Source of the DNA: a virus
Direction: 5' to 3' (one strand)
DNA length: 64,000 bases
Virus record (IMG/VR): IMGVR_UViG_3300028361_000024
Location: 3,829-67,828 of that record
Position 1 is the first letter of the stretch. The number at the start of each line of letters is the position of its first letter. Positions 3,350 through 59,886 of this stretch are shown piece by piece. Position numbers and translations under genes: made by a program. The notes beneath the pieces are model-generated. The model searched no databases, had not been told where the DNA came from, and worked only from the letters and a program-made list of their open reading frames with translations.

Positions 3350-3380
3350 TTTTTGTCTCTCTGTTTTTTATGTTTAATTA

Positions 3381-4348: not shown

Positions 4349-4380
4349 GAGGGACTCCTTCCGTTTAGGGTGTTGAATTT

Positions 4381-5418: not shown

Positions 5419-5446
5419 TGTGTCACTTTCCTAAAGTTTTCTGATT

Positions 5447-5487
5447 AACCTAGAAAGCCGCTCAGCGGACTGAACGGCAATCTAGGT
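5447..5487 (-). terminator. Long imperfect hairpin downstream of SSB gene
   Basis: CCTAGA-AAGCCG-CTCAG-CGGA-CTGA-ACGGC-AA-TCTAGG inverted repeat. Confidence 0.5.
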
Positions 5488-5503
5488 CATTCAAAAGCCC
5501 CTC

Positions 5504-6040: not shown

Positions 6041-6042
6041 GT

Positions 6043-6825: not shown

Positions 6826-6828
6826 ATG

Positions 6829-9560: not shown

Positions 9561-9629
9561 TGCTACCTCTTTCGTCGTTATGTAGAGATACTAACACATA
9601 ATAAGACCCCGTGGGGCAAATCGTGTTAG

Positions 9630-10112
9630 TTACTTTTCATTATTCAATAATGCCCTAGGAATCCAACTTTGTCTAGCTAAAGCTAGTAGGGCGTGTCGGA
9701 TTGCGTCAAGTGCATGCCCCTCGCCACCTTTGTGCCATGTTTCAAGCTTTTTTAGTGCGGTGTTGGGGAACATGTTTTTTGCGTCCACGGGTGCCTGCAC
9801 CTTTACTTTCTCTAAGTCGTGCCCAGCTTCCCGACATAGCTGCTTAAGAACGCCAATTTGCTCTAACGAGTAGGGAGCTTGAGAATTACGCACAGTTTGT
9901 TGATTTATGGTAAACCTTTCGTAGGCAACCACAAAGACATCAAAACCCTCGGCTCCCTGCTTTAGACCAGCTCTAACTCGTTCGGCATAATCATCTGCGT
10001 CAACTTCATCGGACCACTCAAGGACAGGATTAACGTCATGGTCGCCGTTCCAACTGACAAAAGCGATTCCACTGGCTTTTCCAGGGTCTACTGACAAAAT
10101 CCCAATCTTCAT
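9630..10112 (-). CDS. RuvC-like Holliday junction resolvase (start at 10112)
   Basis: ILSVDPGKASG, YERF, HALDAIRH; TAATG coupling with polymerase stop. Confidence 0.75.
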   Translation of the reverse strand: MKIGILSVDPGKASGIAFVSWNGDHDVNPVLEWSDEVDADDYAERVRAGLKQGAEGFDVFVVAYERFTINQQTVRNSQAPYSLEQIGVLKQLCREAGHDLEKVKVQAPVDAKNMFPNTALKKLETWHKGGEGHALDAIRHALLALARQSWIPRALLNNEK

Positions 10113-17185: not shown

Positions 17186-17207
17186 TTAGTGTCCTTAAAG
17201 TGTTGCG

Positions 17208-33200: not shown

Positions 33201-35174
33201 TGCTGGAATCAAGCAAACCAGATTTAAAACAGCTTGGGGGTCGTCATCAGCAACAATAGCCAAGTACATCGGCTTTACATCAGTACTCTCTGGAGTCAGC
33301 ATTCTTGCTTTGCCATCAGCTGCTGCAGTCAGTCCTTCGGCAGAAAGCTTGGTTGGGTCAAACCTACTGTCCCAGGACCTGCGATTTTCTTGGCCTACTA
33401 CTTTGTCGCGAGACTGCTTGTCGTCTACTTTTACCCCAGGGAAGCTTTTTGGTTTGTACCAGCTACCGTATGTCTGTCCAGAGCCTCTGCCAGACTTATC
33501 GCCGTACACAGAATCTAACCAGTCACGAAGAAGTGGCTCGTTGTAGACGTTCTCTGTTGTAGCAGGGCTCCATCCAGGCTTAGCCGTACCATCTGGGTTA
33601 AAAGAGCCCTTGTGGTAACGTCCCAGCGCAGTGTTGATGTCTGGTACAGCCTTAGGAACAAACGGAGGAATTGGGTCACCGTCATACTCAGGGGCTAACC
33701 TTTGGTCTGCAACCCACGAGCCCCAGTCTCTAACTAATGTGCCAACATTTGAAGCGGTTAGTGGTGGAAGGCGGCCAGGCAATTGAGCGTTTGGCTGGTC
33801 GATAGGGACTCTTGGTTCGCCAAGGATTCCAGTAAAATCTAAGTTATTTGCGGGGAAGTTGGCCTGAGATACAGGCTCAAAGGTTTCTACTTTTTGAGTT
33901 GAGCTTCCAGCTACTGTAACTGATTCTCCGTTATTTAACTCAACAGTGACCGTCTTGTCAGTAGGGTTCTGAGATGTAACAACCCCTTGATAGTTAAAAT
34001 CTCCGCCAATCACAACTGTCGAACCGTTTTCTGCGAACCGCCCCAACTTGTCACGAACTTGCGTCTCAGCTCGCGCTGCCCTTTCTTCTGGGGTGTCTAC
34101 TCCTGGGCTTGTATCGACGGAAGACTCCTCAGCAAAAGTTGCGACCCCTGAAGCCATAAGACCGTCGTCGTAGTAGTCCTCTTCTTCCAAGAGGTCAGGA
34201 GTCTCGTCACTGAACTGGTCTAACAACTCAAAGTCAAGTTCTGGCATTGCTGCCTCAAAAAGCTCTGTTTCGTTGAAGTTCAACTGCTTGAGAAATACTG
34301 GCTCCATAGGAGCATTGTCCAACATCGCGGAGCAGGAGATGGCGGTCTCACGGTCTACTGGAACATAGGTTTTTTGGCTTTTATCGTAGGGGTCATCTAA
34401 AGCTTTGTCGTAAGTGATAAAGTCATTTTCAACGTTGCCCATGTCTTCCCACGAGCCGTCATCCCAGACCTTGCAAGTTCCGTCTTCGTCTACTTTGTAG
34501 AGGCGGTCAATCCCGCCACTAGTCAGATTAATTCGGATATAGAAATCAGGCTCTACACCAGTCGCAGCGTAGGAACCATAGTCAACCCTCTGCTCTGCAT
34601 AATATTCGTCGTAGCCCCCAGCCGAAAGGCCTTCTTTGCTATTCTCGCGCTCAACGATGGCTGATGCCCAGCGCTGTGCAGCGTCCCCACCCCAAAGTGC
34701 CCAAGCAATGCGACCATTACTTGGGTAGTTATCCTCAGCTGGCTTGTAGCCTTTGGCTTTTTTGTCTACTTCGTGGCGCGGGAAATACTTAGCAATGTGG
34801 CGAACTTTTTCAATTCCAACTTGACCACCCTTGACAAGACTGCGAGCATTGTTAAGGCCAACGGGAGTGCCTCCCCGCTTCTCTTCTTTACGCCACGCAA
34901 GCCCCCGCTTAGCCTCAGCGATGACAGACTTAGGGATTGTGTACATACGGTCATTAGCCGCAAAAACTCTGATGTCCAGCTCGGTAATCGCGGCCTTGGC
35001 CAACTCTGCTGAGGGGCCTATTGGCTCTTCGATTGAAGCGTCCCACTGGGCTGACGCAACGAGGGTCTCAGTCTCGTCTACGCGAATAATCGTGTTGGAC
35101 ATTACGTCGACAACTACGCCTCTTTCAGCGTCCGTGTACAAAAGTTGATTCCCGTGGCTACCGTGGTATTCCAT
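30264..35174 (-). CDS. 1636-aa head polyprotein containing the capsid maturation protease and several small domains
   Basis: Protease-like EGIETGDGR...LPLLW...GHDG...GVSADMD...PAF (~32150-32570); GRVFGHIA domain; IAWALWGG domain; LRRYW...KIRW domain; DUF6582-like MPDGSFPI domain; directly upstream of MCP. Confidence 0.8.
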   Translation of the reverse strand: MEYHGSHGNQLLYTDAERGVVVDVMSNTIIRVDETETLVASAQWDASIEEPIGPSAELAKAAITELDIRVFAANDRMYTIPKSVIAEAKRGLAWRKEEKRGGTPVGLNNARSLVKGGQVGIEKVRHIAKYFPRHEVDKKAKGYKPAEDNYPSNGRIAWALWGGDAAQRWASAIVERENSKEGLSAGGYDEYYAEQRVDYGSYAATGVEPDFYIRINLTSGGIDRLYKVDEDGTCKVWDDGSWEDMGNVENDFITYDKALDDPYDKSQKTYVPVDRETAISCSAMLDNAPMEPVFLKQLNFNETELFEAAMPELDFELLDQFSDETPDLLEEEDYYDDGLMASGVATFAEESSVDTSPGVDTPEERAARAETQVRDKLGRFAENGSTVVIGGDFNYQGVVTSQNPTDKTVTVELNNGESVTVAGSSTQKVETFEPVSQANFPANNLDFTGILGEPRVPIDQPNAQLPGRLPPLTASNVGTLVRDWGSWVADQRLAPEYDGDPIPPFVPKAVPDINTALGRYHKGSFNPDGTAKPGWSPATTENVYNEPLLRDWLDSVYGDKSGRGSGQTYGSWYKPKSFPGVKVDDKQSRDKVVGQENRRSWDSRFDPTKLSAEGLTAAADGKARMLTPESTDVKPMYLAIVADDDPQAVLNLVCLIPASTGTASPTTFVRRPGEWVKDEQVLADLNSPTPPPVIVLDNENLAIVTEQIDGDAVVASAVVQSHFALTRNTTISALMAAGGADRNKGNAENLRRYWTVGKGGLKIRWNTPGDWTRCNRQLKKYMGPRAKGYCALRHKEMTGVWPGDKKNVGKKKRGSALKASAELQSTPLSTLRSEAQIIEMATLRARAMSAKSKVKGRAGASPTEHGAKFVIPLVIPEGIETGDGRVFQKDSIGMRDLPLPLLWQIKTGNGHDGSVVVGQIISMERTKSGIGNAIGLFDSGEFGKEAERLVRHGFVRGVSADMDKFEADEETTDDTGGDSKSISSGRINITSARVMAVTIVPKPAFQECFIQIVDETSDAEEETMQPDGVYVDNVNPLDASALVACGMVAGAIPNEPPTTWFENPKLKKATPLTIGDDGRVFGHIAAWHVDHIGMAFGTKPPRSRSQYSYFHTGVVRTEEGSDVPVGQLTLAGGHAGLEASAQQAAKHYDDTGSAFADVHAGEDSYGIWVAGSLRSGTTPEQIRAARASAPSGDWRPIKGSLELVAVCQVNVPGFPIARARVASGQVMALVAAGANVLAQLKSDPLAELNAKIDALAVAQSEPLIENARARFAQAREEIRSTNLERMNELSLRVKEAKKKDDESWEYMIQMMDDDPENELAVVPRRIRQRLAREGKAMPDGSFPIRNISDLRNAVRAYGRAKPGAKGAVRKHIMKRARGLNRPDLIPPKWSTKFSENGEELSLRDRAITASGILSMKKSSDSENLEALFTEKGFTAAAGDDENLEDLTPEEVEALKTEKTSRENEDLRPKLTPDTQPRDDSGKFRKVLARLKTDLGIAGLNDAVERAKEIENFDESGDTDQATESAQKLIGFVDRLDAKALNPEALENIRESSGKLGEVIANLPLQFGEESQKIRYSDVPDPLQQLMKDMIERVEAKIGDEDADIATADLKRFMSGGDYFNQSEISAEMSKLLRLLT

Positions 35175-35177
35175 AGG

Positions 35178-35459
35178 TTATTTGCCTTCCTCGTAGTCAA
35201 CCAAATCCTCAGAAGTGAGTAACTCGTTGTCGTCAAACCGCTTAACAAGTTCTGAAGCTTTTTCGTAATCCAGTTCAGTAATTTCGGTGCCGTCAAACTC
35301 TATAGCTATATCCGAAGTACCAAGGGTCCATTTACCGTCAATACGAAAAAAGGTACCCAAGTTTTCAATGTCGTAGACAAGCGTGACTACTTGGTTAAGT
35401 TCTGTGTCTACCAAAGCTTCTACGGATTGGTTAAAATCAACCGCCTCATTCTCCGCCAT
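35178..35459 (-). CDS. Small acidic hypothetical protein
   Basis: 93 aa, translationally coupled. Confidence 0.75.
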   Translation of the reverse strand: MAENEAVDFNQSVEALVDTELNQVVTLVYDIENLGTFFRIDGKWTLGTSDIAIEFDGTEITELDYEKASELVKRFDDNELLTSEDLVDYEEGK

Positions 35460-35767
35460 TAGGCTTCCTCGCTGTCTTCAGGTTCTGGATTAAGACTTGT
35501 TAAGTTGTCATCTTCTGCTACCTTACGAATGACGTATTTAGCGTCATGTGCTTCAAACTCAATTGTACCGTCTGGGGATATGGTGACATCCTCGCTATCA
35601 ACCAGATAGTCGTATCCATAGTCGCCCATGTCAACCGTAATGTAGTCGTTCTCATCCTCGCTGGAAGCAACAAGAACAGCCCCCAGGATTAGACGTTTGA
35701 AGGTCCCCTCGCTTGTGGATTTCTCTAAAATGCCCACACCCTCGTATACAAGTCGTACGTCTTTCAT
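35459..35767 (-). CDS. Small acidic hypothetical protein
   Basis: 102 aa, TAATG-coupled to giant ORF stop. Confidence 0.75.
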   Translation of the reverse strand: MKDVRLVYEGVGILEKSTSEGTFKRLILGAVLVASSEDENDYITVDMGDYGYDYLVDSEDVTISPDGTIEFEAHDAKYVIRKVAEDDNLTSLNPEPEDSEEA

Positions 35768-38700
35768 TATTTAACTCCAAATAATTCGTTTACGGGCTTA
35801 CCAGCAATTTCTGTAATTCCCTCGCTTGTCAATCGCTCTAGTAAAAACTTTCTGGCAGCTGAGTCAAGCGATATTCCAGATAAATCAGCCCAGCTAAGAT
35901 TGTCCTTAAACAGAACTTCCGACACGTTCGCGCCTTTCAAAAGCTCTAGATAGTCGGTGTCTTCGTACTTTTTACCCCACTCGTCGTAGTTAGAGCCATA
36001 AAACTCTGGGCGACGGATTAGCTGGACTCCATCAAAGAAAAACTCTAGGCCCTTGTACGAACCCTGGTTTAGGTCCATTTTTGGGGTCTTTCGAGTGAAC
36101 ACATACCCTGCGCCAACTCCTGCAAGGTCAGAAGAGCTTGACTGGCCAGAGGTATTTAACCCCTCGGTCCAACGAGTGACTGTGGAGTACAATCCGCCAC
36201 CAGTTTTGAACAGCAAGTCGTAGACAAAATCTGCTCTTGCTTTTTCGTCGCTTGGAAGGTTTCCGCTAGCAAAGTTGTGCTTAAAGAAGCTAACTCCATA
36301 GGTTGCAGCCAGCTGTTCTGCAACCTCTTCGGGAAGCAGGTACTGAATTGCGCCTTTTTGCTGCTCATCTACACGAACCTCCATGTTATCAGCAGTAAAG
36401 TTATAATTTTTCTCTACTTCATCAAGAATTTGCTTACGAAGTTCTCCCTCGTAGTTCTTTGCTCCATTGCCCTTTTTACCAAAAAGCGAAATAATTTTGT
36501 TCTCTGCAACTCCTCGGAAATCTGCTTCTGTGGCGGGGCGGACTTCTTGAACTCCACCAACTTCCTTTATGGCTTCAGCTATCTGCTCTGGAGTTGCGTT
36601 TTCTGGCAAAAGAATTTCTACACGGTTATGGAGCGAAACTGGGCCGTTGCTGGACCCGCCTTTTTTGAAAAAGTCGGGGGTGGTTGCACTGCGATTGGCA
36701 CGAATGAATTGGAACGCTCCGCTGCCCCCAGCAATCTCACCTCGGTAAGTACGGCCCTTGTTGTTGCCATCTACGTTCCCTGTGCTCCACTCTTCGCTAA
36801 ACGTTAAAGAGCCGTCTGCGTTGGTCTTGTACTTGTCTAGCCTCGCGTTATCACTAACGTCTAGGTCCTGCTGCTTAGCTAGTTTTTTGGTGAAAGCGTT
36901 GCCCGCCCAGTTGGTCAATTTAAAGGAAAGACGAATTTGCTTTTTGCCGTCTTTCTCTACTTTCTGAATCCGAACTTTCAGGTCTTCGATGTCCCCAGCG
37001 TCAATCATTACTTGAGAACCATTGGCAGCTTCTAGAGGACTTCCAGCATCCAGCTTAGTAACCGCGCTCTGGAGGCTTGGGACCTGCTCAAGGGGAGTGT
37101 CTCCCCAATTAGCTGGGCCATCGAGAGTCTCCACGGAAAAGCCAGGGCCCTCGACTGTGAACTTATCCGCTAAGTCTTGCTTGGCTTTCTCGATTACGGC
37201 TTTTTTAGCAGATTCTTCTTTTTGCTTCTTTTCTTGCTCTGCTTGGGCGACGGCTTGCTTTTTTGCCTCTTCAGCTTTGGCACCCTGAGCCTTTATGGCT
37301 TCAGCACGAATTGAGTCGTCTACTTCAATTCCCAGCTCTTTGGACTGCTCGTTAGTTAAAAACTTCTCGCGGCTCCATACGTTTTTTTGTTCTAGCTTCT
37401 GAGTAGTGCCTTTCATTGGCCCGTCGAAGTAGGTAACCTCTACGGCAAGTTCATTTGGGAAAGTCTTTGTTACGACACCGTGGCTTGCAAGTTCTGGGTT
37501 TGGCGCGTCTGGGTCTTGGTTAGAAGCAATAATTCCAGGGAGCATATTCTGACCAGTGGACGTTGCGTCTTTCACCAAGTACTTTTTAACAAGGCTTTTG
37601 TATTCGTTCTTATTTGAAGCTCCAAAGTACGAAGTGTGCATCGCAGAGTTCTTGTCTACAGCGACAGATTCAACCTCAGCCAACGTACTTTCTGGAGTAA
37701 GACCACTTGGGGCCACTGCTTCAGCTGGTTGTAACTCTTCTGGCTCGGGCGTAGGCGCTTCAGGCGCTGGTGTCTCGGGAGTAGTTGGTGGGGTTGGTGT
37801 TCCGCCGCCGCCGTCTCCTTCTTGTCCAGGGTCTTGGTCAGGGCCATCCTCAGGGGCTTGAGAGCCTTCAGGCATTAAGAAGGTAGAGGCTTTCCAGTTT
37901 GCCTTTGACTGTCCTTCAAATTTAACTTTTGCAACGTCTGTGTAGGTGTAGGTCTTGCCTCCAGCTTTCACAACGTACTGGTCCTTAAGGGAGGTAACAA
38001 CCCCCTTCTTGCCTGTCTTGGTATCAGTAACTGTCATCCCAACCTGAATAACGGTCGTGCCGTCTGCTGAAACGTAAGACTCCTGCTGCTTAGGGGGCAT
38101 GGATGGCTGAATAGTGGAGGCGGTCTCTTTTTTGGACCCAGCGAGAATCTTTGCAGGGAAGGCCTTGCTCTTGTAGATTTCGTTATTTATCCGACTGTTT
38201 AGGGCGGTAGATGAGTGCCAGCGACCTTTCAGCTCTTTAACCCTAGTGACACCCGTTTCTTCGTCTGTAATGCGGTGGTAGGTGCTAAATGTGTTGTCGG
38301 AGTTACGTTTTACTAAAACGTCAAAACGCTTATTGTTAAATTTGGTAGAAGAGACAACAATGTGTCCGTTGTCTAGAGTGCTAGCACTGTAGTCTTCGAT
38401 AACCTGCGCCCAAATTAAGTCAGGGTCAGTTGGGTTCGCAAGTTCTTTGGCAAGCTCGTCGAGGTCAATTTTCGAGACCGCGTCTGTAGGAATATCCTCG
38501 TCGCCATCTACGGGAGTAAGTGCCTGCTCTAAATCATCAGTTATCTTTTCCTCGGGAGTTGCCTTTGGAGTAGCTGCTGGTGCAGGGTTAGTCAAGTCAT
38601 TGAGAATGGACTCAACAAGCTCTGGGTCCTCTACTTCGTTGTCTTTGAAGCCTTGTAGTAGCTGCTTAATCTTTTCTGGGTCTTTGCTGCCGAACAAAGC

Positions 38701-41700
38701 TTCAGCTATGTTCTCAACCTTTTGTACAAGTTTTTGCTTCTGGTCTTGAGGCACCTCAGTGGGCTTTACAGACTCGACGGGCTCGGCTTGAGGGTCAAGG
38801 GTTATCTCGTCAGATGGCTGAGGGGTTGCCACGCTTGGCTCCGATGCCTGAGGGGCAGCATCGTTTTCTTGTTCCATCTTTGTAAGGTTGTAGGTGTAGA
38901 ACTTTCCATTAGGAAGTGTCCCAACAACGTTAACGTTTCCGTTTTTGGCGGTCTTCACTTCTGCTGGGGAAAGGTCTACTGTTTTGCCGTTGTACTTAAA
39001 GACAATGTTGTTTCCAGTAGCGATTGCATCCTGAATTTGAGCATCAAGGTCGTCAATCAAATCTTCTGGGTCTATGTCGTCAAGTGAAAGAAGTACCTTG
39101 TCTGGACCATCCTCTGAAGCAATAGGGGCTTCGATTGGCTCATCGTCAAGTCCATATATCTCAATAAGCTCTTTACGACGACGCTTCAAGTTCTCCTTGA
39201 GGCTGTTCGCAATTGATTGACTGCTAATTCCATCGATTCCGCCAGCAAAGGCCTCATCTACTAATTCATCAATCTTGGCTTCGTCAATATTTGCAACGAG
39301 CTTTGCTGACTCGCCAATCTCGGCGTCGGTCATGTCTCCGAATACGCTTGCTGTCTGGGAGTTAACATTTGAATCGCGAAGTGAGCTAATCTGCTCTGCG
39401 ACATTTGTATCCAGCTCTTTGGCCTTGTCAGCTCCCTGAGCACGGAAGAGCAGTGCACCACCAGCGTCAATACGGAAAGGCTTGGCGTTGGCAACAACAA
39501 TGTTGTCCTTCTCAAGGCCGATGACATCGTAGTTGTTGAGCCATGCGTCAACCGCAAAACCCTTTTTGATTTCGTCAGTGATGTTTTGGTTAGGTGCAAT
39601 CTGACCGAGAGTTCCGTCGGTTCCATCAATGACGGGAGAGACTATAACAATTTTGCCAGCCTTGTTTTTCCCGATGTAGGCACGCCCGACAGCCAAGCCA
39701 GCCTCTTCATACAGCGCAGAAGCAAGAACTTCATTAGCTGCGTGAGCTTCGGTCTTTGGGGTCTTGACGTAATACTGTTGCCCACTGTCTGGGTCGACAT
39801 AGAATGCTCCCTGATTTGACCCAGCTTGCCCTGAAACTTTTTTCCAGTTAGAGGTGTCAAAGACTTGACCCAATGAGCCGCTCTGTACCTCAGGGATAAC
39901 AATTTCATCAGGCTCAGCTGTCGTAGGCTCGTCGAGCGCAAGGCCCAAGAGAACATCTGCGGTGTCTGCAAAGTTGTCCTGAAGAGTGCCTTGAGAAGCC
40001 ATCTTGCTAATTTGGTCAGCAGTGAACCAACCAACCTCAGAGCTTTCTCCATCTTTCGGTGACAAGTCGTTTAGCTGGCCTGGTCCCACCTCGAAGACAT
40101 GAGTGTTGTATGTCCAACCAGGAGCAACTTCATTAGCAAACTGACCGACTGGGAGAACGGAGTCTGGTCCTAAGTCGCCGCCAACTTCTTCTTCAAATTC
40201 GTTGATTGCAGTGATAATGCCGTTATTTTCTTCGGAGTCACTCTTATCCTTGTGGGCACCCCCTGGGTATCCCCACTTTCCGCCCCCCTGCGAAAGCCCA
40301 GAGGAGCGCTTTGCTAGGAAGTACTCAAAGACGCCCTCGTTGTTCTTACGGCGAACTAGAGCGCCAGCAGCGCCAAACTTGCCCCAGAAACGCATTCCAT
40401 TTGTAGCAAAGAAGTAGCCATCACCTTGGTCGGGCTTATTGCCGCCACCTATCGGAGCAAAGAACGGCAACTGAGGGGGAGTCATCACGCCGCTTCGTAG
40501 CTTCTGAACATCAGAGCTAGAAATTCCGTCAGCATAGTAGACACCGTCAGCATCTTGCTTAATGTCGTAGGTCTGCCACTTTTCAATGGTAGCTTCTGTG
40601 TCGACGTTAGGGGCTGCTTCCTCAAGAACAGGGGCCTCAACTTCGCCATTGCGTCGTCTAATACCGTAAGCCTGGAACTTTACCCAAGACTTGTTCATAC
40701 CGTACTCTTTGCCATTGGCAAGCAAGCGTCGCCTTACAAAGACTTTGTTTGGGTCAGCTGGGTCATCGAGAATCTCAAGAACTTCAAACCAGCCCTCTGA
40801 TGGGGCACTTACGAAGTCCCCTACCTGCCACTCCTCAATAGCAACCTTGCCAAGTGATGTGGTGTTCTCGTTGTCCTCTACCCAGTTATTTGAGATGGAG
40901 TCGCCTAGTACTGATTCAATTGCTAGGTCACCGTCTGCCAAGTCAGACTTGGTTGCAGCTGTAGCAGAGGTAGCTTCGTCAGAAGTTGGGCGGACCTTAG
41001 GCATTGACTTTACAATCTCGTCAACTGTCGCAATTTTGTTGTCACCATCAAAAGCATCCTGGATAACTTTAGAAACAGCAAGGCTTGTGTCAGCGAGGTC
41101 TTTCTTGCCTTGAGCCGCCTTGAACTCTGCAAGCTCCTCTTCGTACTTTTGCATGTTGGCGTCAACGTCAAGAGCTGAGATTCCTTGATTGGTCTTAGCC
41201 ATCTCCTGCATAAGGTTCTTCAGAATCGAAGGGAGAACATCGCTATCAGTTACTGCATCGTGCCAGTCACCATCAGGAACAATTCCGTAGCGGTTTGCAA
41301 CACTCTGAAGAGTGTGAGCACCGTTTCCTCCGTTAATAACAAGGCGGGCTAGCGATAGAGTGTCTACCTCTCCGCTTGGGCTGTAGTTGAGGCCAAACTT
41401 TTGAGCGAAGCGCTTCATAATGCCACCATCAAACGGCAAGTTATGCGCTAGAACAATTGTGTCAGGGCCAATCTTTTCAAGAAGCTTTGTCATCTGCTCT
41501 TCTAGAGAAGGCTGCTTTGCCAAGAACTCATCTGAGACTGGATTACCAGAGGGGTCTTTTAGTGTTTTGTCTGGGTCAGCTTTTTTATAGAAATCTCCAA
41601 GTGGTACTTCTGGATTCATCCAGTAAGCACCAGCAGCGGTTGCCAGACCATCGTCAATTTTGGTCCATGCAACTTGAATAGGTGTTTGGCTGTCAAATGC

Positions 41701-44700
41701 GCCATCGGCTGCGGTCTCAAAGTCAAGATAGATTATCTCTTCTTTTTCAAGGAGCTCTAGGAACTTTATAGGGTCGCCAGCTGCTTCAACTTCAATCTGC
41801 TTAAGCTTTTCCCCAGAGAATGCTGGAGAGGCAGGAGCCTTTGGCTTAGAGGGAGTTTTTTTCTTAGGCTTGTCAGTGTCGCCTGTTTGAGCAGTTGAAA
41901 CGGAGTCTGGGTCAATTGGAGGAGTAAAGCCCTCTGCGGAGAGTTTCTTTGCAGCTTTGAACGCCGCTTTCTTTTCTACTAAGTCTGGGTCATCTTTTTT
42001 AGGACGCTCAAGAGCTGGAGCGTTTCCAGGGGCTGGCAAATCAGAAGCACCACGCATAACCGTAATTTCAGTTGTAGCGTTCCACTCTTTTGTCTGAGAG
42101 ACGTGCCCTGGGTAGTACCCCTGAACAACGGCCTTTCCGTCTACCTCTTCTACGCCTTCAATAATGAAGTACTCGTAAAAATCAGAACCCCACTCTTTTT
42201 TGAAAGTGACGTCTCCAGCTTTAACTTCTGTAGCCTTAACCGTGGTTACACCAACGGGGTTCGCTGGGCTAAAGGGTGAAGCAACTTCTTCGGTCTGCCA
42301 CACAGCAAGAGTCTCGGTGTCAGGTGCAGTCCATAGCCCCTGAGCTTGCGCAAGGTTTTTGTTGTACTCGTCTAGGGCATCAAGAAATTTACTACGCGCT
42401 TCTGCGTCCTTAGGAACAAAGGCCCCTAAGTTTGTGTCGTTAAAAATCTTGCCTTCGGGGTCAAATTCTTTTGGCTTTGGCTTAGATAGAGTTGGGAGGT
42501 CCCCCTTTGCGGGGACCTCTACATTACGGTAAACTTTAATCTGAACATTCTTGTTCCAGAGCTTGGTCTTCTGAGTCTGGTGCCCAGGGTAGTATCCCTC
42601 AATCCAAACGCTTCCTGGCTTCTGTGCCTCGGAGTCGGCGTCGGAGAATACATTCTCAATTACAAAGTTGTCAGAGAACGTAATGTCTCCTGCTTTGAGG
42701 TTCTCGGCGCTGGCGCTTAGGAGGGCTGGTCCGTCTGGTTCTCCTGTAAAGATTCCTGGGGTAGCTGTTCCTGCTCCACCATCATCAGCGGTGTCTGCTG
42801 CTTGGTCTTGCGAGTCCTCTGTAGGCGGTTGCGGGGCTTCGGCTGTAGGTTCTTGGACCTCGGGGGCATCTTCGAGGGATTCGTCTTCTTGGACATTTTC
42901 TCCTTCAAGAGCATCCTGAACCTCTTCGGGAGTCGGCTCGTCGGAGCTCTGCCCTTTAAGGCCTTCTTGGTAGATATTGTCTATTAATTCGTCAGTGTCC
43001 ACGCCCTGCAACTGCAGAGCGTCACGAATTGCTTCAGCTGGGACGTTTGCTAGGTACTGCTCTCCCTCGGGAGTGTCCATACCCAAGATTCCATAGCCTG
43101 GGGTTGCGGTTCCTGGCTCTAGGGCACGACGAAGCTCCGTAACAAGCTCATCGTTTTTATAGTCATTGGCAATGTCAACTGGGTTGACAGAAAAGCCTTC
43201 AGGCGCATCTTGCGGAGTATCGCCTTCAATTTCATTAAAAGGCGCATCGTCGATTGAGGAATAGCCCTCTGGAACCTCAGATTCTTCGTAAACCTTATTC
43301 TTTGGGAGATATGACTTATAGTCACCCGAATCTAGGAACGCCTTCTGCTCGTCCTCGGTCATCCCCTCAATAATCGGAGGAAGGGTTTTGTTAGAGGGTG
43401 TGGCCTTAGCTGCATCAGGAATCTCTTCGCCCAAGGATTCTTCAGTTGCCTTAGGAACTTTGGTACCTAAGTCGCCAGTACCGCCCTTATAGATATCGTC
43501 AAGAATGGCTTTAGCATCTTCGCCTTTTTCGTTGAGCGCTTCATAGATAGCTTCAACGGGAACGGGCTCGGTCCCATCGGAGAAAGGCAGATACCCAAAA
43601 CCAGTGCCAGACTGCTCCTCAGTGCCAGCAACACCCTCGTTGAGGGCCGTGGCTAAGTCTTTGGTCGAATACTCTTCGGAAAGCTGTGAAGGGTCGTCTG
43701 TGTAGTCTTCTGAGATTTGATTATCAACAGCACCCTGTGGCTCGTAAGGGGCGTCTGTGTTCCATGAGTAAAAGTTTTCGGGAGTGGTCCCTGTTTCTGG
43801 TGAAGCCTCGGTCTCGTCTGCGGGAGACTCTTCTTGATTTTGAGTGCCCTGCTCGTCAAAGTCATCCAGCCAAGCGTCAGGGTTGGCATTTCCAAGAGAG
43901 TCACGAAGAACGCGTCCCGTCTCGGAATCAATAACAGTTCCGTCGTCCATCATAAAGTGGTCGCGGGTTGGGTCTAGAGGGAATTCGCCGCCCTCTTCTT
44001 TAAACTTTTTTAATTTTCTCCGATAAGCGGTCTGTTTTACCTTAGAAGCGTTAGCGTCTCCAGGAATCTCTTGACCGTCGAAATCGGCGATGTCAACTTT
44101 ATCGCCAATCTGAAGTTCTGGGTCAAGCAGTCCCGCTGCCCTTTCGGGGCGCTGTGGGTCAGCTGGGTCGCCTGCTTCGTAGAGGTCTTCGTCCTTAGAG
44201 ATAAAGCTTTGAACATCTCCCCAAGACTGAACAGTGGCAAATTCCTTTTCCTTGCCATCTTTACGACGGACAAAGTAAACAGGCAGAGTTGGGTCGAGCT
44301 CTCCGTTTTCGCCCATACCTAAAGCAACGACATTGTTGCCTTCAGCCTCTTTTTGCTGCTGGGCTTCGAATTTATGCATTGCCGCAACGTTATTTCCGTT
44401 GTCGAACTTTACAATTTCGTAATTATCGTTATCGTCGACGAACCTAGTTCCAAGGTCAATATTTGGGCCGTAGTAGTCAAGGTCATCCTGCGTAGGCTTG
44501 AAAGAAGGGTCTTTTGCGTAACCGTCGGGGGAGTCTACAAATTCTAGGTCTGCTTCATCAATCACATCACTGTCAGCTGAAGATTTGGCGGGAGTCTTGC
44601 TAAATCCCTGGGCATCCTGTTGACTAGGGAGAATAGCCTTAACGGACTTACCAGCAGAGGCTGGTGTCCTAATGAGCCTGCCATCTGGGAGCTCTTGGAT

Positions 44701-45393
44701 AAAAGTTTTATTGCTGGGGTTCGTCGAAACGATACGACCAGCAAGCCACGAAACGCCTCCACCTATGCGACGCACTAGCCTACGAAGGCCTCCGCCCATG
44801 TTGGAGAATTTACCTTCGCTGTCTCGAAGCTGGAAGCGCCAGAAGCCTTTGTTACCGCCCATTTTGAATGCCGCAACTAGGGCAATCAAAGGGACCTTAC
44901 CTGGGCCCATAGCATTTAGACGAGCAACAGCGTACTGCTGAGCAGGACTCCCTGGCTCAGAGGCAAAGGCGGACGCAAGAAGCGGACCAACCAAAGGGTC
45001 TGTTACGCGAGAGTCGTCGGCGAACCAACGCGCTTGAGCCTTGCGAAGCTCTTTCCAATCCATCGAAGTCTTGCGAGTGGAGCGTGGGTGTGCAAGGGAG
45101 AGTAAGTCGGTATGTGCGGCGGCAGTGATTACTTTGTCCTGCTGAACTAGAGCAGCAAACTCCGAGAGCTCAGAAAAAGCGCGGTGGCGACGGACAGAGT
45201 AGCTCTCGTCTGCGCTCTTGATGAGAGAACGTGTGGCGACTTTTTTGGCCATTCCAGACGTGATTCGACGTGTACCACGATGCGCGCCATTAAGGTCTGC
45301 AAGAGAGTCAATAGCGTCGCGAATAATGTTCGCGTCCTGCTCTGCAACAGACAGTACGTGTGTTGCTGGTTTGGTTGGGTGGTTGCTACTCAT
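35767..45393 (-). CDS. Giant (~3208 aa) multi-domain head-module protein: DEDDh exonuclease, Nudix, HipA/PI-kinase-like, WYL-like and ART-like domains
   Basis: Single uninterrupted ORF; YLDFET/AHNLPFD/WHDAVTD; WGYPGG..EFEEEVG; GSN..YYVK..NEVLA..DAWLNNYD..RIDAG; probable ATG at 45393 after GAGAGG. Confidence 0.88.
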   Translation of the reverse strand: MSSNHPTKPATHVLSVAEQDANIIRDAIDSLADLNGAHRGTRRITSGMAKKVATRSLIKSADESYSVRRHRAFSELSEFAALVQQDKVITAAAHTDLLSLAHPRSTRKTSMDWKELRKAQARWFADDSRVTDPLVGPLLASAFASEPGSPAQQYAVARLNAMGPGKVPLIALVAAFKMGGNKGFWRFQLRDSEGKFSNMGGGLRRLVRRIGGGVSWLAGRIVSTNPSNKTFIQELPDGRLIRTPASAGKSVKAILPSQQDAQGFSKTPAKSSADSDVIDEADLEFVDSPDGYAKDPSFKPTQDDLDYYGPNIDLGTRFVDDNDNYEIVKFDNGNNVAAMHKFEAQQQKEAEGNNVVALGMGENGELDPTLPVYFVRRKDGKEKEFATVQSWGDVQSFISKDEDLYEAGDPADPQRPERAAGLLDPELQIGDKVDIADFDGQEIPGDANASKVKQTAYRRKLKKFKEEGGEFPLDPTRDHFMMDDGTVIDSETGRVLRDSLGNANPDAWLDDFDEQGTQNQEESPADETEASPETGTTPENFYSWNTDAPYEPQGAVDNQISEDYTDDPSQLSEEYSTKDLATALNEGVAGTEEQSGTGFGYLPFSDGTEPVPVEAIYEALNEKGEDAKAILDDIYKGGTGDLGTKVPKATEESLGEEIPDAAKATPSNKTLPPIIEGMTEDEQKAFLDSGDYKSYLPKNKVYEESEVPEGYSSIDDAPFNEIEGDTPQDAPEGFSVNPVDIANDYKNDELVTELRRALEPGTATPGYGILGMDTPEGEQYLANVPAEAIRDALQLQGVDTDELIDNIYQEGLKGQSSDEPTPEEVQDALEGENVQEDESLEDAPEVQEPTAEAPQPPTEDSQDQAADTADDGGAGTATPGIFTGEPDGPALLSASAENLKAGDITFSDNFVIENVFSDADSEAQKPGSVWIEGYYPGHQTQKTKLWNKNVQIKVYRNVEVPAKGDLPTLSKPKPKEFDPEGKIFNDTNLGAFVPKDAEARSKFLDALDEYNKNLAQAQGLWTAPDTETLAVWQTEEVASPFSPANPVGVTTVKATEVKAGDVTFKKEWGSDFYEYFIIEGVEEVDGKAVVQGYYPGHVSQTKEWNATTEITVMRGASDLPAPGNAPALERPKKDDPDLVEKKAAFKAAKKLSAEGFTPPIDPDSVSTAQTGDTDKPKKKTPSKPKAPASPAFSGEKLKQIEVEAAGDPIKFLELLEKEEIIYLDFETAADGAFDSQTPIQVAWTKIDDGLATAAGAYWMNPEVPLGDFYKKADPDKTLKDPSGNPVSDEFLAKQPSLEEQMTKLLEKIGPDTIVLAHNLPFDGGIMKRFAQKFGLNYSPSGEVDTLSLARLVINGGNGAHTLQSVANRYGIVPDGDWHDAVTDSDVLPSILKNLMQEMAKTNQGISALDVDANMQKYEEELAEFKAAQGKKDLADTSLAVSKVIQDAFDGDNKIATVDEIVKSMPKVRPTSDEATSATAATKSDLADGDLAIESVLGDSISNNWVEDNENTTSLGKVAIEEWQVGDFVSAPSEGWFEVLEILDDPADPNKVFVRRRLLANGKEYGMNKSWVKFQAYGIRRRNGEVEAPVLEEAAPNVDTEATIEKWQTYDIKQDADGVYYADGISSSDVQKLRSGVMTPPQLPFFAPIGGGNKPDQGDGYFFATNGMRFWGKFGAAGALVRRKNNEGVFEYFLAKRSSGLSQGGGKWGYPGGAHKDKSDSEENNGIITAINEFEEEVGGDLGPDSVLPVGQFANEVAPGWTYNTHVFEVGPGQLNDLSPKDGESSEVGWFTADQISKMASQGTLQDNFADTADVLLGLALDEPTTAEPDEIVIPEVQSGSLGQVFDTSNWKKVSGQAGSNQGAFYVDPDSGQQYYVKTPKTEAHAANEVLASALYEEAGLAVGRAYIGKNKAGKIVIVSPVIDGTDGTLGQIAPNQNITDEIKKGFAVDAWLNNYDVIGLEKDNIVVANAKPFRIDAGGALLFRAQGADKAKELDTNVAEQISSLRDSNVNSQTASVFGDMTDAEIGESAKLVANIDEAKIDELVDEAFAGGIDGISSQSIANSLKENLKRRRKELIEIYGLDDEPIEAPIASEDGPDKVLLSLDDIDPEDLIDDLDAQIQDAIATGNNIVFKYNGKTVDLSPAEVKTAKNGNVNVVGTLPNGKFYTYNLTKMEQENDAAPQASEPSVATPQPSDEITLDPQAEPVESVKPTEVPQDQKQKLVQKVENIAEALFGSKDPEKIKQLLQGFKDNEVEDPELVESILNDLTNPAPAATPKATPEEKITDDLEQALTPVDGDEDIPTDAVSKIDLDELAKELANPTDPDLIWAQVIEDYSASTLDNGHIVVSSTKFNNKRFDVLVKRNSDNTFSTYHRITDEETGVTRVKELKGRWHSSTALNSRINNEIYKSKAFPAKILAGSKKETASTIQPSMPPKQQESYVSADGTTVIQVGMTVTDTKTGKKGVVTSLKDQYVVKAGGKTYTYTDVAKVKFEGQSKANWKASTFLMPEGSQAPEDGPDQDPGQEGDGGGGTPTPPTTPETPAPEAPTPEPEELQPAEAVAPSGLTPESTLAEVESVAVDKNSAMHTSYFGASNKNEYKSLVKKYLVKDATSTGQNMLPGIIASNQDPDAPNPELASHGVVTKTFPNELAVEVTYFDGPMKGTTQKLEQKNVWSREKFLTNEQSKELGIEVDDSIRAEAIKAQGAKAEEAKKQAVAQAEQEKKQKEESAKKAVIEKAKQDLADKFTVEGPGFSVETLDGPANWGDTPLEQVPSLQSAVTKLDAGSPLEAANGSQVMIDAGDIEDLKVRIQKVEKDGKKQIRLSFKLTNWAGNAFTKKLAKQQDLDVSDNARLDKYKTNADGSLTFSEEWSTGNVDGNNKGRTYRGEIAGGSGAFQFIRANRSATTPDFFKKGGSSNGPVSLHNRVEILLPENATPEQIAEAIKEVGGVQEVRPATEADFRGVAENKIISLFGKKGNGAKNYEGELRKQILDEVEKNYNFTADNMEVRVDEQQKGAIQYLLPEEVAEQLAATYGVSFFKHNFASGNLPSDEKARADFVYDLLFKTGGGLYSTVTRWTEGLNTSGQSSSSDLAGVGAGYVFTRKTPKMDLNQGSYKGLEFFFDGVQLIRRPEFYGSNYDEWGKKYEDTDYLELLKGANVSEVLFKDNLSWADLSGISLDSAARKFLLERLTSEGITEIAGKPVNELFGVK

Positions 45394-46561
45394 CAAAGCC
45401 CTCTCGTGGGAGCAAGTCAGCATCTAGACTATCGTGTGCAAGGATTGCGAGAAGCTTTGCCCTTGTGTAGGGGTCTTCTCCATTTCGTAGACCGCGAAGC
45501 CAGCTTGCTCTAATAGCAGGCTCTGCTTCGTAGCCAAAATCTGAAAACTCGGTCAAAGCAAGAATTGCTTCTTCGGCACTGGCAAAAGTGTTTTCTGCGG
45601 GCAGCTCGATTTCGAGTTCTGCCTCTGCGTACTCAGATGCAGCTGAAAGCTCTAACTCGGAGTGCAGCTGAGCGTCTGCGGTCAAGGACTCAATAGACGA
45701 GTCCTTCTTTGTGGACCTTGGGTGGGAAGCGGGAAGTAGGTCGTTGTCCTGCACATAAGCAGCCTTAGAGGGCTTGCCTGAGGAAAGCAAACGCAGGAAA
45801 GCGTTAACGCGAGCAAGTGCCCAAGAGTTTCGGTTCTGTCCAGGTCGGAAGCTTGTGGAGAAAGCCCCAGCTCCGCGGCGGTAGACAGCCTTTAGCATCC
45901 CAAGAGTTGCGCGGCGTCCCTTAGATGCTTTTTTGTTGTGGGTCTCAACCTTATTGGAAAGAGCTTTTTCTACGGCCTTTGAAAAGGTAATTTTCTTACT
46001 GCCAGAAGCCGAGCCCTTTTTGTTCTTTGAAGAGCCTTTTATTTGGTCCTTTTTGGGAGCAGGAGTCTGGGCAGCAGTGCGCTTCTTTTTAGCTGCAGCT
46101 TCGTCATCGTGGTCAGAGTCCAACATAAGATTTCCGTCTGGCATGTAGTGATAACCTTCGGGAGCTTCTGGTCTTGGGGCATTCTCTTCATGTGCCGAGT
46201 CTGGCATCAGTTCGCCGTCTGGCATGTAGTGGAAGCCCTCGGGGGCAGCTGGTCTGTTCTCAGCGGCAAACGTTGCAGCTTCGGCGATAGCTGAAGTAGT
46301 AGCAGGGACGCAGTTGGGGACTTGATTGCCGTTTTTGCCTTTTTTGGTGCCTACTTGGACGTAGCCGTCCCAGCAGGGGCTGTTGGAAAGCTCTTCGGAT
46401 GCATACTCTTGTCTGATGCTCTTGCGAAGTTCGTGAACTTCATTCTCCAAGGTCGACAAAGTACGGATAAGAGCATTCTTATCCGAAACTCTGACTGAGC
46501 TGGTTGGCTTAGGGGTAGGCGCATGGCTCTGACCCCCTCCCAGCTCTCCTCGGGATTCCAT
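45386..46561 (-). CDS. Head-module protein with CWDGY motif, two HYMPDG repeats and a DUF5824-like domain
   Basis: PCWDGY...PNCVP; APEGxHYMPDGxLMxDSxH twice; LKAVYRRGAGA...RPG...WALARVNAF. Confidence 0.75.
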   Translation of the reverse strand: MESRGELGGGQSHAPTPKPTSSVRVSDKNALIRTLSTLENEVHELRKSIRQEYASEELSNSPCWDGYVQVGTKKGKNGNQVPNCVPATTSAIAEAATFAAENRPAAPEGFHYMPDGELMPDSAHEENAPRPEAPEGYHYMPDGNLMLDSDHDDEAAAKKKRTAAQTPAPKKDQIKGSSKNKKGSASGSKKITFSKAVEKALSNKVETHNKKASKGRRATLGMLKAVYRRGAGAFSTSFRPGQNRNSWALARVNAFLRLLSSGKPSKAAYVQDNDLLPASHPRSTKKDSSIESLTADAQLHSELELSAASEYAEAELEIELPAENTFASAEEAILALTEFSDFGYEAEPAIRASWLRGLRNGEDPYTRAKLLAILAHDSLDADLLPREGFDE

Positions 46562-46563
46562 AC

Positions 46564-47046
46564 TTAGTAAGCTCCGCCCAAGCCCTTTAGGTGAGAGCGC
46601 AACTGCCACTGCCACATCATGTGAACGTCAATGCGCCCAGAGTAGAAATCGCTAGTGCCATATTCGCAGGCCTTCTCGGAAAGCTCGTAGCCTCTTTTGA
46701 GGTTCTCAAGAAACACCTGGTTAGAGTCATACAAATCCTGAACCATGTCACGAACAGTTGAGCACTCTGTCATAGGGTCTTGGATATTCGACATCTTTAA
46801 GAATTGGTGCAAAGTGAACGGAGCTTTTACATCCATCTTGCGGATGCTCTCTGCCATAGGGTCAATCGAGTCTTGAACCTCTTCGTAGATTTCTCCAAAG
46901 AATCTGTGGAACTCGCTGAAGTCTGAGCCTTCGACATTCCAGTGATGCCCCTGAGCCTTAAATGTAAAAACAACAGCGTTTCCTAGGTTGCAGGCGAGGT
47001 TGTTTACAAGCTCCATGCGTACATCATCTTTTTTCATACCATGCAT
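46564..47046 (-). CDS. dps: Dps-family (mini-ferritin) protein
   Basis: KAQGHHWNVEGSDFSEFHRFFGEIYE...IDPMAESIR ferroxidase signature, terminal WQL. Confidence 0.9.
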   Translation of the reverse strand: MHGMKKDDVRMELVNNLACNLGNAVVFTFKAQGHHWNVEGSDFSEFHRFFGEIYEEVQDSIDPMAESIRKMDVKAPFTLHQFLKMSNIQDPMTECSTVRDMVQDLYDSNQVFLENLKRGYELSEKACEYGTSDFYSGRIDVHMMWQWQLRSHLKGLGGAY

Positions 47047-48791
47047 TAGTTAGTGCCCCCTTCAGGTGCGGCTTCCTCTGTTACAGGTGCAGGTTCTCCT
47101 GCAGCTGCTCTTTTCAAGACCTCTTCAACGTCGGGAGGCAGAGGAGCAACGGATTGCCCCTGCTGAGCCGACCGAACGGCATTCATAATCTCTGGAGAAA
47201 TCGCCCCAAGCATTGCTTCGGTAAGTTCTGGTGTAAGTGCGCCCTTTTCCTGAAGCAAACGTACTGCAACTTCAGTAGGGGTAGGAGCATCCTGGTCTGA
47301 GAAGCCGTGTGCGCGCCGCCAGGCGTCGTAAGACACTGCCCCGCGGTCGAAGCCTGCATCAGCATCTGAGGCCCTGTCGTTGCGTGTGGAGACCGCTGAA
47401 GGGTCATACCAAACAGTAATACGGCTAACATCTATGTCTGAGTAGCCATTTGCAATCAAATATGGGCGCAAATAGACAACTGTGAGGGCGTCAACAATCA
47501 AAAGCATCAACGGTTCGATGTGCGCTTTGTACAACGCTTCATCAATTTGTAGAGCGTTGGAGTACTTTACGTTAGCCAAGCCTGTAACAACGTCCTTAGG
47601 AACGTCAAGGCCCTGCAGGATGCGCTCCAGAACGCGGTCGGAACGCTCAGCAAGTGCTGGGTCAAACGAACGCTCAAACTTGAACTGCTTGATAGCATCG
47701 CCAAGCTCGGCTGGTCCACGAATAATCAGAGGAACCACGGCAGATGCGGACTCTTCGTCACGAATCGGCGTGGTCATAGCGTCAATTAGCTGCTCTTCAA
47801 ACTCATCTTCTGCTTCCTCGGCAGTAAATCCCGTCCCGATTCCATCCTCAGAGTCGTAAGGATAGTCAGGGTCGCCCTGAGCAGCCACAGATAGACCGTC
47901 AGGAAGATAAAGCGCGCCAGCGTTAAGGCGAGAGCGAGCAGTTGCACGGAATGTCCTGTTCAGTAGAAGGAGTTCGGCACAAAGGTCAAGGAGCCCACGC
48001 AAGCTTGAGTCGGACTCATCCGAATAACGAGGGTGTGAGCGCCAGATACGGCCAACAAAAGCGTTCTTGCCTAAGTTGACAACTCCTTCGCGACCTCCTC
48101 CTCCCGACCCAGAGCTCTGCTCTCGACGACCGATAACGGTGTAGTTACCGCGAGCGTCAGTTATTACCTCGTCAACGGAGCGGATGTCCCAAGATTCAGG
48201 CTCTCCAGTTCCTTGACGGGCTGGCATCTGAACTAGGTAGCATTCGCCAGTGACGGCAAGGTTAAGAGCGGCGTCTTTTAAAAGTCCAGGCTGTCCGCCG
48301 TACGCCGAGTTAAGTCGCAAAAGAGCGCGTTCTGCAGCAGCAGCAAGTGCTGGGTCCACTGAGCGAGACTCGCTTGCGGAAACGGGGGCCTGACTTGGGT
48401 CGTCAATTGCAGCCGCGAAGATGCGGATACGAGAGACAACGGATGCTACAAGATTAAAAGCGTATTTGATTTCGCCAATTGCGTCGTAGTATTCCCATGC
48501 TTCGCCCTGCCATGCAGATGAGGAAGCGGAACGTCGAGCCTTAAACTGCTCGAACTCGCCCTTGTCGTTCATTTTTACTTGCGAGGCTGCAGCCGTCAGG
48601 GCGCGGGGGGCGTTATAGGCAACTGGAGGAGGGCTGTTGAAGAAGACGGGTGAGCCTGTCGGCTGAGGCGTCCTGGCGTTACGAACATTCTGATTTGAAC
48701 GGGAGGTGGCTTTATTCTTAGCGGGCTTTACAGGCGTCGCTTTAGCCTTTGGAGCCTCTGGCGTTGGCTCTTCTCTATTAAATACACCCAT
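47046..48791 (-). CDS. Portal protein
   Basis: WQGEAWEYYDAIGEI, RIWRSHP, ARSRL..G.L, SAVVP, GLDVP, VWYDPS typical of actinophage portals; head module position. Confidence 0.85.
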   Translation of the reverse strand: MGVFNREEPTPEAPKAKATPVKPAKNKATSRSNQNVRNARTPQPTGSPVFFNSPPPVAYNAPRALTAAASQVKMNDKGEFEQFKARRSASSSAWQGEAWEYYDAIGEIKYAFNLVASVVSRIRIFAAAIDDPSQAPVSASESRSVDPALAAAAERALLRLNSAYGGQPGLLKDAALNLAVTGECYLVQMPARQGTGEPESWDIRSVDEVITDARGNYTVIGRREQSSGSGGGGREGVVNLGKNAFVGRIWRSHPRYSDESDSSLRGLLDLCAELLLLNRTFRATARSRLNAGALYLPDGLSVAAQGDPDYPYDSEDGIGTGFTAEEAEDEFEEQLIDAMTTPIRDEESASAVVPLIIRGPAELGDAIKQFKFERSFDPALAERSDRVLERILQGLDVPKDVVTGLANVKYSNALQIDEALYKAHIEPLMLLIVDALTVVYLRPYLIANGYSDIDVSRITVWYDPSAVSTRNDRASDADAGFDRGAVSYDAWRRAHGFSDQDAPTPTEVAVRLLQEKGALTPELTEAMLGAISPEIMNAVRSAQQGQSVAPLPPDVEEVLKRAAAGEPAPVTEEAAPEGGTN

Positions 48792-59761: not shown

Positions 59762-59886
59762 CTGTTGTCCTTCCAATTTTTTACCCCGTGTCCAGCGGGC
59801 AATTTGAACTTATTATAGAAACCACTGGGTGTCAACCTTAGGCGAGAGAAGAGAGGACACCCATGCACCCTCTCCTCCCGTTCCAG

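Follow-up and report, generated by a model that had tools for sequence, protein, structure and literature searches.

A giant multi-enzyme protein of an actinophage head operon as probable polyvalent cargo: constant front end, shuffled enzymes and absence of cysteine

Why should the head operon of a tailed phage carry, between the genes for the portal and for the capsid, a single gene for a chain of more than 3000 residues that holds several enzymes, and in which cell would those enzymes act? The question is raised by a 64-kb window (the whole stretch of DNA analysed here) from one 67.8-kb virus contig, IMG/VR record IMGVR_UViG_3300028361_000024. In this window, the gene at 35767..45393 (minus strand, as are all features located in the window below) encodes a protein of 3208 amino acids (aa), hereafter the giant protein, for which an original prediction made from the letters alone had proposed a host-takeover effector delivered by the virion. 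What that prediction observed in the DNA has been confirmed, and its interpretation is partly supported. The giant protein is probably a polyvalent multi-enzyme cargo of an uncultured siphovirus-type actinophage, packed in the head and released into the next host. Packaging in the virion and delivery at injection are suggested by the position of the gene, by N-terminal sub-modules common to the neighbouring head proteins and by the complete lack of cysteine.

The gene consists of a single open reading frame (ORF), unbroken from 45423 to 35767 (3218 codons counting from the first ATG, the numbering used for residues below; stop codon 35767-35769). A second in-frame ATG at 45393 is the likely true start, because it is preceded by a Shine-Dalgarno-like run, GAGAGGG, and overlaps the stop of the upstream gene; the frame that had been claimed from 35767 to 45393 is thus confirmed, its end coinciding with this start. 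A search recovered 100 relatives of 1794-5050 aa, and the ORF is complete in 57 of 80 IMG/VR loci carrying the kinase domain described below, being at least 2000 aa long in 54 of those 57. Since relatives keep the ORF whole, the giant frame is not an assembly accident. Within it lie at least four enzyme domains and about ten additional conserved modules. The protein, of roughly 350 kDa, has 544 Asp/Glu versus 330 Lys/Arg and a net charge near -214, and its linkers reach 29 Asp/Glu or 16 Pro per 100 residues, as expected from the acidic, proline-rich linkers noticed at the outset. The gene has no Megablast match in 50,697 phage records, and tblastn of residues 1-900 gave a weak one, to Actinomycetia phage DSL-LC01 alone.

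Five domains with apparently intact catalytic residues had been called in the giant protein. Four of these folds (exonuclease, Nudix, kinase-like and ADP-ribosyltransferase-like) stand, with catalytic residues conserved across 42-64 relatives, while the WYL-like domain lacks a direct match. The DEDDh 3'-5' exonuclease (41128..41748; residues 1226-1432) matches Pfam RNase_T (PF00929) over residues 1232-1394 with 34.8-41.6 bits, above the cut-off of 24. At least 80-95% of 57 relatives retain its catalytic residues D1234, E1236, D1332, H1388 and D1393, and the closest solved sequences are the PolC and epsilon exonucleases. A role as replicative proofreader is not needed, because the phage encodes its own PolA with an exonuclease domain. 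The Nudix hydrolase (40000..40428; residues 1666-1808) was overlooked in the whole-protein scan; the isolated piece matches Pfam NUDIX (PF00293) with 26.7 bits versus a cut-off of 21.1. Its best solved relative is RenU (6uuf; E 2e-12), an actinobacterial Nudix hydrolase that hydrolyses NADH, FAD and ADP-ribose. The Nudix-box glutamates E1742, E1745 and E1746 are conserved in 42 relatives; the box arginine is an asparagine here (N1741) and the loop is one residue longer. When nine pieces of the protein were scanned against PHROGs, the Nudix region alone (window 39874-40566) found a match, to positions 538-639 of the 794 of PHROG 15528 (E 0.004). This family is labelled 'portal protein', which implies portal-Nudix fusions in other phages, a precedent for the cargo considered below.

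The kinase-like domain (39145..39867; residues 1853-2093) is seen through its structure. A piece covering residues 1840-2160 has no Pfam match at E<=5, PI3_PI4_kinase (PF00454) and HipA_C (PF07804) included, and the profile of the domain finds nothing convincing among PDB sequences, LepB being the only match (E 0.05). A confident AlphaFold2 model (pLDDT 82.6), built from an alignment of 16 rows, predicts a two-lobed atypical protein kinase of the CtkA/CotH/PI4KII/HipA type. With this model Foldseek returned 412 matches at E<=1e-3. Helicobacter pylori CtkA is matched with a Foldseek E of 3e-8 and a VIA Z of 16.0 (207 residues aligned, root-mean-square deviation 3.1), and is followed by CotH (Z 14.9), PI4KII-alpha (14.4), MavQ (13.5), HipA (12.5) and actin-fragmin kinase (12.0). 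The fold is common to all six over about 207-238 residues, whereas sequence identity is just 8-17%. Five residues show no variation among the 64 family members with this domain: K1887 and E1898 at the ATP site, D1959 and N1964 in the Asp-x4-Asn loop, and D1986 in the Asp-x-Gly-Gly motif. The earlier description of the domain as HipA/PI-kinase-like therefore holds, as an atypical kinase fold. IMG/VR contains 506 stretches with the kinase domain of this family. A PF00454-like kinase found at the C-terminus of three relatives (P0042, P0044 and P0093) was considered as the same domain and rejected, since the two do not align.

The C-terminal module comprises 449 residues that behave as one unit, placed nearly always at the extreme end of the protein. 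It has no sequence-level match to any PDB chain (profile E>=0.13) or Pfam family, and its model is confident (pLDDT 84.2, pTM 0.87). According to this model, residues 3033-3218 (35770..36327) take an ADP-ribosyltransferase (ART) fold, as the original prediction had suspected for the C-terminus. Four DarT entries (8baq, 7omu, 7yk3 and 7omv) occupy the top VIA rows with Z 9.2, 8.3, 7.8 and 7.4, and Tpt1, the tRNA 2'-phosphotransferase, comes next with Z 6.0. Foldseek gives DarT a probability of 0.21-0.69 at E>0.1 and no PDB match at E<=1e-3. The VIA alignments to DarT cover 141-152 residues. A conserved His, an aromatic residue and a Glu follow the expected strand order: H3049 (62/62), Y3107 (60/62) and E3169 (58/62, otherwise Gln) are placed on successive strands. 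On the other hand, identity to DarT is 7-14%, and Pfam detects no DarG-like macrodomain in the neighbouring ORFs. Moreover, the domain is phage-borne and sits behind a conserved alpha/beta domain of 170 residues, whereas the DarT of the DarTG toxin-antitoxin systems, which ADP-ribosylates thymidine in single-stranded DNA and is paired with DarG, is a host defence. The closest solved ART relatives modify nucleic acids, and a nucleic-acid target is for this reason favoured for the C-terminal domain; by analogy, such a target seems plausible, if a little short of probable. Neighbours of the ART part in BFVD are uncharacterised giant-virus proteins only (Tupanvirus A0A6N1NNZ5, E 1.6e-3, target TM 0.58; Pithovirus). 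The alpha/beta domain in the first half of the module (36544..37044; residues 2794-2960) resembles the TBP, START and RNA triphosphatase folds weakly (Z 4-6). Seven polar residues of this half (R2908, H2932, N2933, R2962, E2974, N2975 and R2996) recur in 59-62 of 62 relatives, five of the seven without exception, which suggests a further active or ligand site.

How far is this set of enzymes a property of the family? Family profiles were run on 101 proteins (E<=1e-4, at least half of the profile covered), and the modules differ in their spread: the N-terminal module is present in 92, repA in 97, repB in 59, the exonuclease in 60, the Nudix domain in 44, the kinase in 64 and the C-terminal module in 62. 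These combine into 33 architectures, the full set of the giant protein being the commonest (21+12 proteins) and the order being shuffled in some; variable cargo among relatives had been predicted. Out of 1.84 billion representatives, 609 match the N-terminal profile at E<=1e-3, of which 226 do so at E<=1e-30; these members are metagenomic representatives at 50% identity. Among the 150 matches listed, the module is always N-terminal, and the proteins are nearly all of 2000-7004 aa, the others being obvious fragments; a hunt for shorter proteins with this module gave three, which are probably fragments. Other cargo occurs behind the same head. Relatives P0087, P0187 and P0212 carry between them ArdC-N with MPTase-PolyVal (this pair twice in P0187), UvrD and ADPrib_exo_Tox, and KTSC and WYL domains also occur in the family. 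The MPTase-PolyVal family of Pfam takes its name from the polyvalent-protein class, of which it is a hallmark together with ArdC-N. The family can thus be regarded as a library of natural enzyme combinations, probably delivered into cells.

This distribution also bears on a structural explanation, in which the protein would be packaged but serve mainly inside the head or the ejection channel, at the DNA ends or in the organisation of the genome, its enzymes acting on the phage's own DNA, for instance by trimming or protecting ends when the DNA is packaged or enters the cell. The best-conserved parts, the N-terminal module and repA, indeed bear no enzymatic signature, and the exonuclease and the small beta-barrel domains could work on phage DNA ends. 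The major capsid protein (27918-30101, 727 aa) has moreover a long N-terminal extension: in distant relatives from Arthrobacter and Gordonia phages the alignment begins only at about residue 277-330, so that its first 300 residues or so may represent a scaffold fused to it or a delta-like extension, and a scaffold encoded as a separate gene has not been identified. However, a fixed structural role would not tolerate the gain, loss and shuffling of cargo just described, no structural purpose is obvious for the kinase, Nudix and ART domains, and the ArdC-N and MPTase domains of relatives belong to anti-restriction. We regard this explanation as quite improbable.

The second step concerns the place of the gene. 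All on the same strand, the order is portal (phrog_776; 47046..48791), a Dps/ferritin-like gene, a 409-aa DUF5824 protein (45386..46615), the giant gene, two small acidic ORFs, a 1636-aa protein (30264..35174), the major capsid protein, the major tail protein and an adaptor. The flanking genes bear out the position between portal and protease or capsid protein that had been claimed. The MuF position, in contrast, is not occupied by the giant gene: residues ~870-1290 of the 1636-aa protein match the SEA-PHAGES function 'capsid maturation protease and MuF-like fusion protein' (990 phage records; 31% identity to Rosebush gp13, for example), so that the MuF-like/protease domain belongs to this next large gene. 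Searched by phmmer against the PDB, that region has no match. The giant protein itself has no MuF domain by Pfam in the whole protein or in ten pieces, in agreement with the original prediction. The slot is fixed. Of 54 IMG/VR loci with at least 3.5 kb of sequence upstream of the giant gene, 52 have a same-strand portal gene there; of 54 with at least 3 kb downstream of it, 52 have the MuF/protease gene there. Judged by their capsid proteins, the named phages closest to this one are DSL-LC01 (70%), the Microbacterium phage Pumpernickel and the Arthrobacter phage Atuin, and in each of these cultured relatives the same slot holds a giant gene (3289 aa in DSL-LC01, 2235 aa in Pumpernickel gp82 and 3113 aa in Atuin gp71). 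Two annotations in these genomes deserve a comment. Atuin gene 71 (3171-12512), directly after the portal and with a QRD sub-module (described below) at its start (E 1e-11), is annotated as 'DNA helicase'. In DSL-LC01 the homologue of the 1636-aa ORF appears as three consecutive coding sequences (14960-19879), each called 'capsid maturation protease', which may reflect a split gene or sequence errors in the record.

The third line of evidence is the front end of the protein. The family-defining N-terminal module (44404..45378; residues 16-340) contains two recognisable sub-modules. The first, DUF5824-like (45064..45351; residues ~25-120), is homologous to residues 211-310 of the 409-aa protein encoded just upstream, for which Pfam gives a DUF5824 match. 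The second, named QRD (44629..44871; residues 185-265), combines a small beta domain with an Arg-rich stretch and the motif Q-x-R-D-x-x-G-[KR]-F, and it recurs at residues 363-435 of the 1636-aa MuF/protease protein. When the N-terminal family hidden Markov model (HMM) was run against the 380 window ORFs of at least 60 aa, it also matched these two neighbours: the DUF5824 protein at E 4e-14 (profile positions 11-107; BLASTP E 4e-4) and the MuF/protease protein at E 1e-9 (positions 179-257, that is, QRD). QRD is further found at the start of Pumpernickel gp82 and Atuin gp71 and in their protease-side neighbours, in three head-module proteins of DSL-LC01 and in 137 of 137 further representatives. 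The constant head is completed by repA, of which copy 1 lies at 43477..43701 (residues 575-649) and copy 2 at 42958..43185 (residues 747-822). A domain confined to proteins encoded from the portal to the capsid gene, and attached there to unrelated bodies, has the look of a capsid-address or assembly tag, as far as its sequence distribution goes.

It is tempting to go one step further, and we do so tentatively. The front end might be a hitherto unrecognised, MuF-independent loading and ejection device for proteins of 2,000-7,000 residues in actinobacterial siphoviruses, with QRD as a portable address tag placed also on the MuF/protease and other head-module proteins, and with a cargo that includes a DarT-like enzyme ADP-ribosylating host nucleic acid. 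Because the N-terminal module has no match in PDB sequences (E>=1.2), PHROGs or the ESM Atlas, which counts against a delivery role, its part in loading is drawn from its distribution; the repA region likewise has no usable ESM Atlas match. A complex prediction of QRD with the portal and with residues 1-300 of the major capsid protein, run without controls (score 0.00, mark 0.32), is evidence neither way. If the front end were such a portable tag, it would account for very large cargo in tailed phages lacking MuF fusions and could be used for putting chosen proteins into capsids, and the DarT-like cargo would turn on the host a chemistry that is familiar chiefly from the defence of bacteria against phages.

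The fourth line is composition. Not a single cysteine is present in the 3208 aa of the giant protein, while 20 other window proteins have 56 in 11,317 aa (0.49%), a rate that predicts about 16 at the length of the giant protein. The major capsid protein, the tape measure and one more late protein are also free of cysteine; PolA, the SNF2 helicase and a glycosyltransferase contain 0.95-1.42%. In the family, cysteine is absent from 70 of 101 members, and 100 of 101 have two at most. Enzymes devoid of cysteine, like the proteins of the particle, would be suited to life outside the cell.

These observations have to be set against the possibility of a late cytoplasmic enzyme that is never packaged and that, in the producing cell, might for instance degrade host nucleic acids, clear nucleotide or ADP-ribose signals and modify host proteins. 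All four enzymes could function in the cytoplasm, the giant protein carries no MuF, portal or known capsid-targeting domain, and the literature searched gave no proteomic sign of packaging. Against it stand the fixed slot between portal and MuF/protease gene and the N-terminal sub-modules common only to adjoining head-module proteins; the giant protein moreover lacks cysteine as the capsid and tape measure proteins do, unlike the cytoplasmic enzymes of the same phage, and a constant head with freely swapped cargo is not what is expected of a late housekeeping enzyme. We therefore consider this explanation unlikely.

If the giant protein is instead packaged cargo, the following course of events can be proposed. 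The protein would be made late, together with the head proteins, as its strand, the overlap of its start with the upstream stop and its place between portal and MuF/protease suggest. Its constant front end (DUF5824-like, Arg-rich QRD and two repA) would bring it into the procapsid, and it would then be carried in the virion as beads on a string, cysteine-free and joined by very acidic, Pro-rich linkers, before exiting together with the DNA by way of the tail. Once in the new host, its four enzymes would act early, to judge from their folds and conserved residues. The DEDDh exonuclease may attack nucleic-acid ends or nucleotide signals; the RenU-like Nudix domain, ADP-ribose, NADH or similar dinucleotides; and the CtkA/PI4K/HipA-like kinase, host proteins, while the DarT/Tpt1-like ART would perform an NAD+-dependent modification of host nucleic acid or protein. 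The combined outcome would be takeover of the host or counter-defence. The targets of the kinase and of the DarT-like module would then reveal which host processes are hit first by an actinophage, and freshwater actinobacteria, the hosts of such phages, are among the most abundant bacteria of lakes, according to the accessible text of PMC6802176.

Several points weigh against delivery, beyond the lack of matches of the N-terminal module given above. Avoidance of cysteine suits any extracellular protein and does not by itself prove injection. Virion proteomics or structures were not found for this phage, nor for cultured relatives in the literature searched. The giant protein has no portal or peptidase domain of its own, just as it has no MuF domain (same Pfam scans). 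In the accessible part of a 2022 survey, only 3% of siphoviruses encode ARTs, and myoviruses seem better equipped for the injection of proteins (PMC9503650). A chain of the size and charge given above must share the capsid with the DNA and traverse a siphovirus tail. Finally, the kinase and the ART are assigned from predicted folds at 7-17% identity.

If the cargo is carried in virions, it need not be aimed at bacteria. A 'Trojan horse' function against eukaryotic grazers, in which protists feeding on infected cells would be poisoned by the kinase and the ART, has a precedent in a proposal made for 24 freshwater phages with VIP2-like ARTs, as described in the part of PMC6802176 that could be consulted. 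Among the closest solved kinases are effectors with which bacteria target eukaryotic cells (CtkA, LepB and MavQ), and some relatives carry ADPrib_exo_Tox. The ART of the giant protein, however, is closest to the nucleic-acid-modifying DarT and Tpt1 rather than to VIP2, neither a translocation nor a receptor-binding component is apparent, and the exonuclease, the Nudix domain and the ArdC-N and UvrD domains of relatives indicate bacterial targets. Such a function seems very improbable.

To what extent are proteins of this kind already known? The class is known. Polyvalent proteins likewise join many effector domains (2-15) in one polypeptide, are encoded by phages (beside portal and head genes) or by conjugative elements, and have been predicted to be packaged and injected; the domain classes named for them include ARTs, kinases and helicases (Iyer et al. 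2017, PMC5512222). The accessible text of that paper has one mention of a Nudix domain, adjacent to or fused with an InPase domain, and the kinases described are truncated Ser/Thr/Tyr-type enzymes from Verrucomicrobia and Bacteroidetes (PMC5512222), whereas the kinase of the giant protein is CtkA/PI4K/HipA-like, atypical and found in actinophages. While its relatives with the same head carry ArdC-N, MPTase-PolyVal, UvrD and ADPrib_exo_Tox, the giant protein itself has, of the domains typical of the class, only an ART-like fold; unlike polyvalent proteins it is devoid of MuF, portal and peptidase domains, and for its head (DUF5824-like, QRD and repA) there is no match to a Pfam LPD or to any other family with a name. 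The survey of 2022, by the authors of the polyvalent paper, reports that ART and Nudix domains are often head-packaged (PMC9503650, as far as its accessible part goes). T4 Alt and other head-packaged ART/Nudix proteins resemble the present case in that an NAD+-using transferase or Nudix enzyme is encoded with head genes and enters the host with the DNA, as is known or proposed (PMC9503650, same part). T4 Alt is, however, a single VIP2-type ART of a myovirus, and the giant protein has a DarT/Tpt1-like module in a 3208-aa chain encoded beside siphovirus-type tail genes. Size has a precedent in the virion RNA polymerase of N4, which is ejected into the host. The N4-like enzyme of phage DEV (3398 aa) is virion-associated and shows that a chain of such length fits a phage particle (accessible text of PMC11445570); it serves transcription in podoviruses and has no sequence or domain similarity to the giant protein.

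The suggestion that such a combination had not been described must therefore be divided. Head-packaged ART and Nudix domains in polyvalent proteins have been published (PMC5512222 and PMC9503650, in the portions available), whereas this family and this set of domains were not found in the literature searched; the same is true of the front end and of the kinase and ART clades, although supplementary files may list members. The family, its front end and both clades are absent from PHROGs v4, and the kinase and DarT-like modules represent enzyme clades unnamed in curated libraries. The homologue in DSL-LC01 is a 'hypothetical protein' in its record and is not discussed in the accessible part of the corresponding paper.

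The remaining modules of the giant protein are smaller. The WYL-like call applies to a small beta domain at 38749..38961 (residues 2155-2225). Pfam WYL (PF13280) has no direct match in the giant protein or in four relatives, but an indirect likeness exists through relative P0212: the family HMM of these residues matches three P0212 repeats (best E 1e-11) that overlap a summed Pfam WYL match of E 2e-8. Another small domain, repB, occurs at 42436..42708 (residues 906-996) and 41959..42237 (residues 1063-1155). These repeats, like repA, were found by family HMMs; a BLAST self-comparison of the protein detected no internal repeats. A small conserved domain follows the exonuclease (40699..40923; residues 1501-1575), another lies at 37960..38241 (residues 2395-2488), and two more share 37144..37872 (residues 2518-2585 and 2658-2760), with a Pro-rich acidic linker between them.

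Among the neighbouring genes, translational coupling links the end of the giant gene to the two small acidic ORFs of 102 and 93 aa directly downstream (35178..35767), which have no family matches and no significant similarity to each other or to the 1636-aa protein. Obligatory immunity partners of the ART were considered and set aside for them, since among 48 loci with a C-terminal module and downstream room the 93-aa ORF is present in 20 and the 102-aa ORF in 14. The Dps/ferritin-like gene between the portal and DUF5824 genes (46564-47046; Pfam Ferritin, E 3e-18) is not peculiar to this phage: in about 12 of 80 IMG/VR loci a homologue precedes the giant gene. In the early region, a gene for an AAA_5 (MoxR-like) ATPase adjoins one for a VWA/CoxE-like protein (57971-60918).

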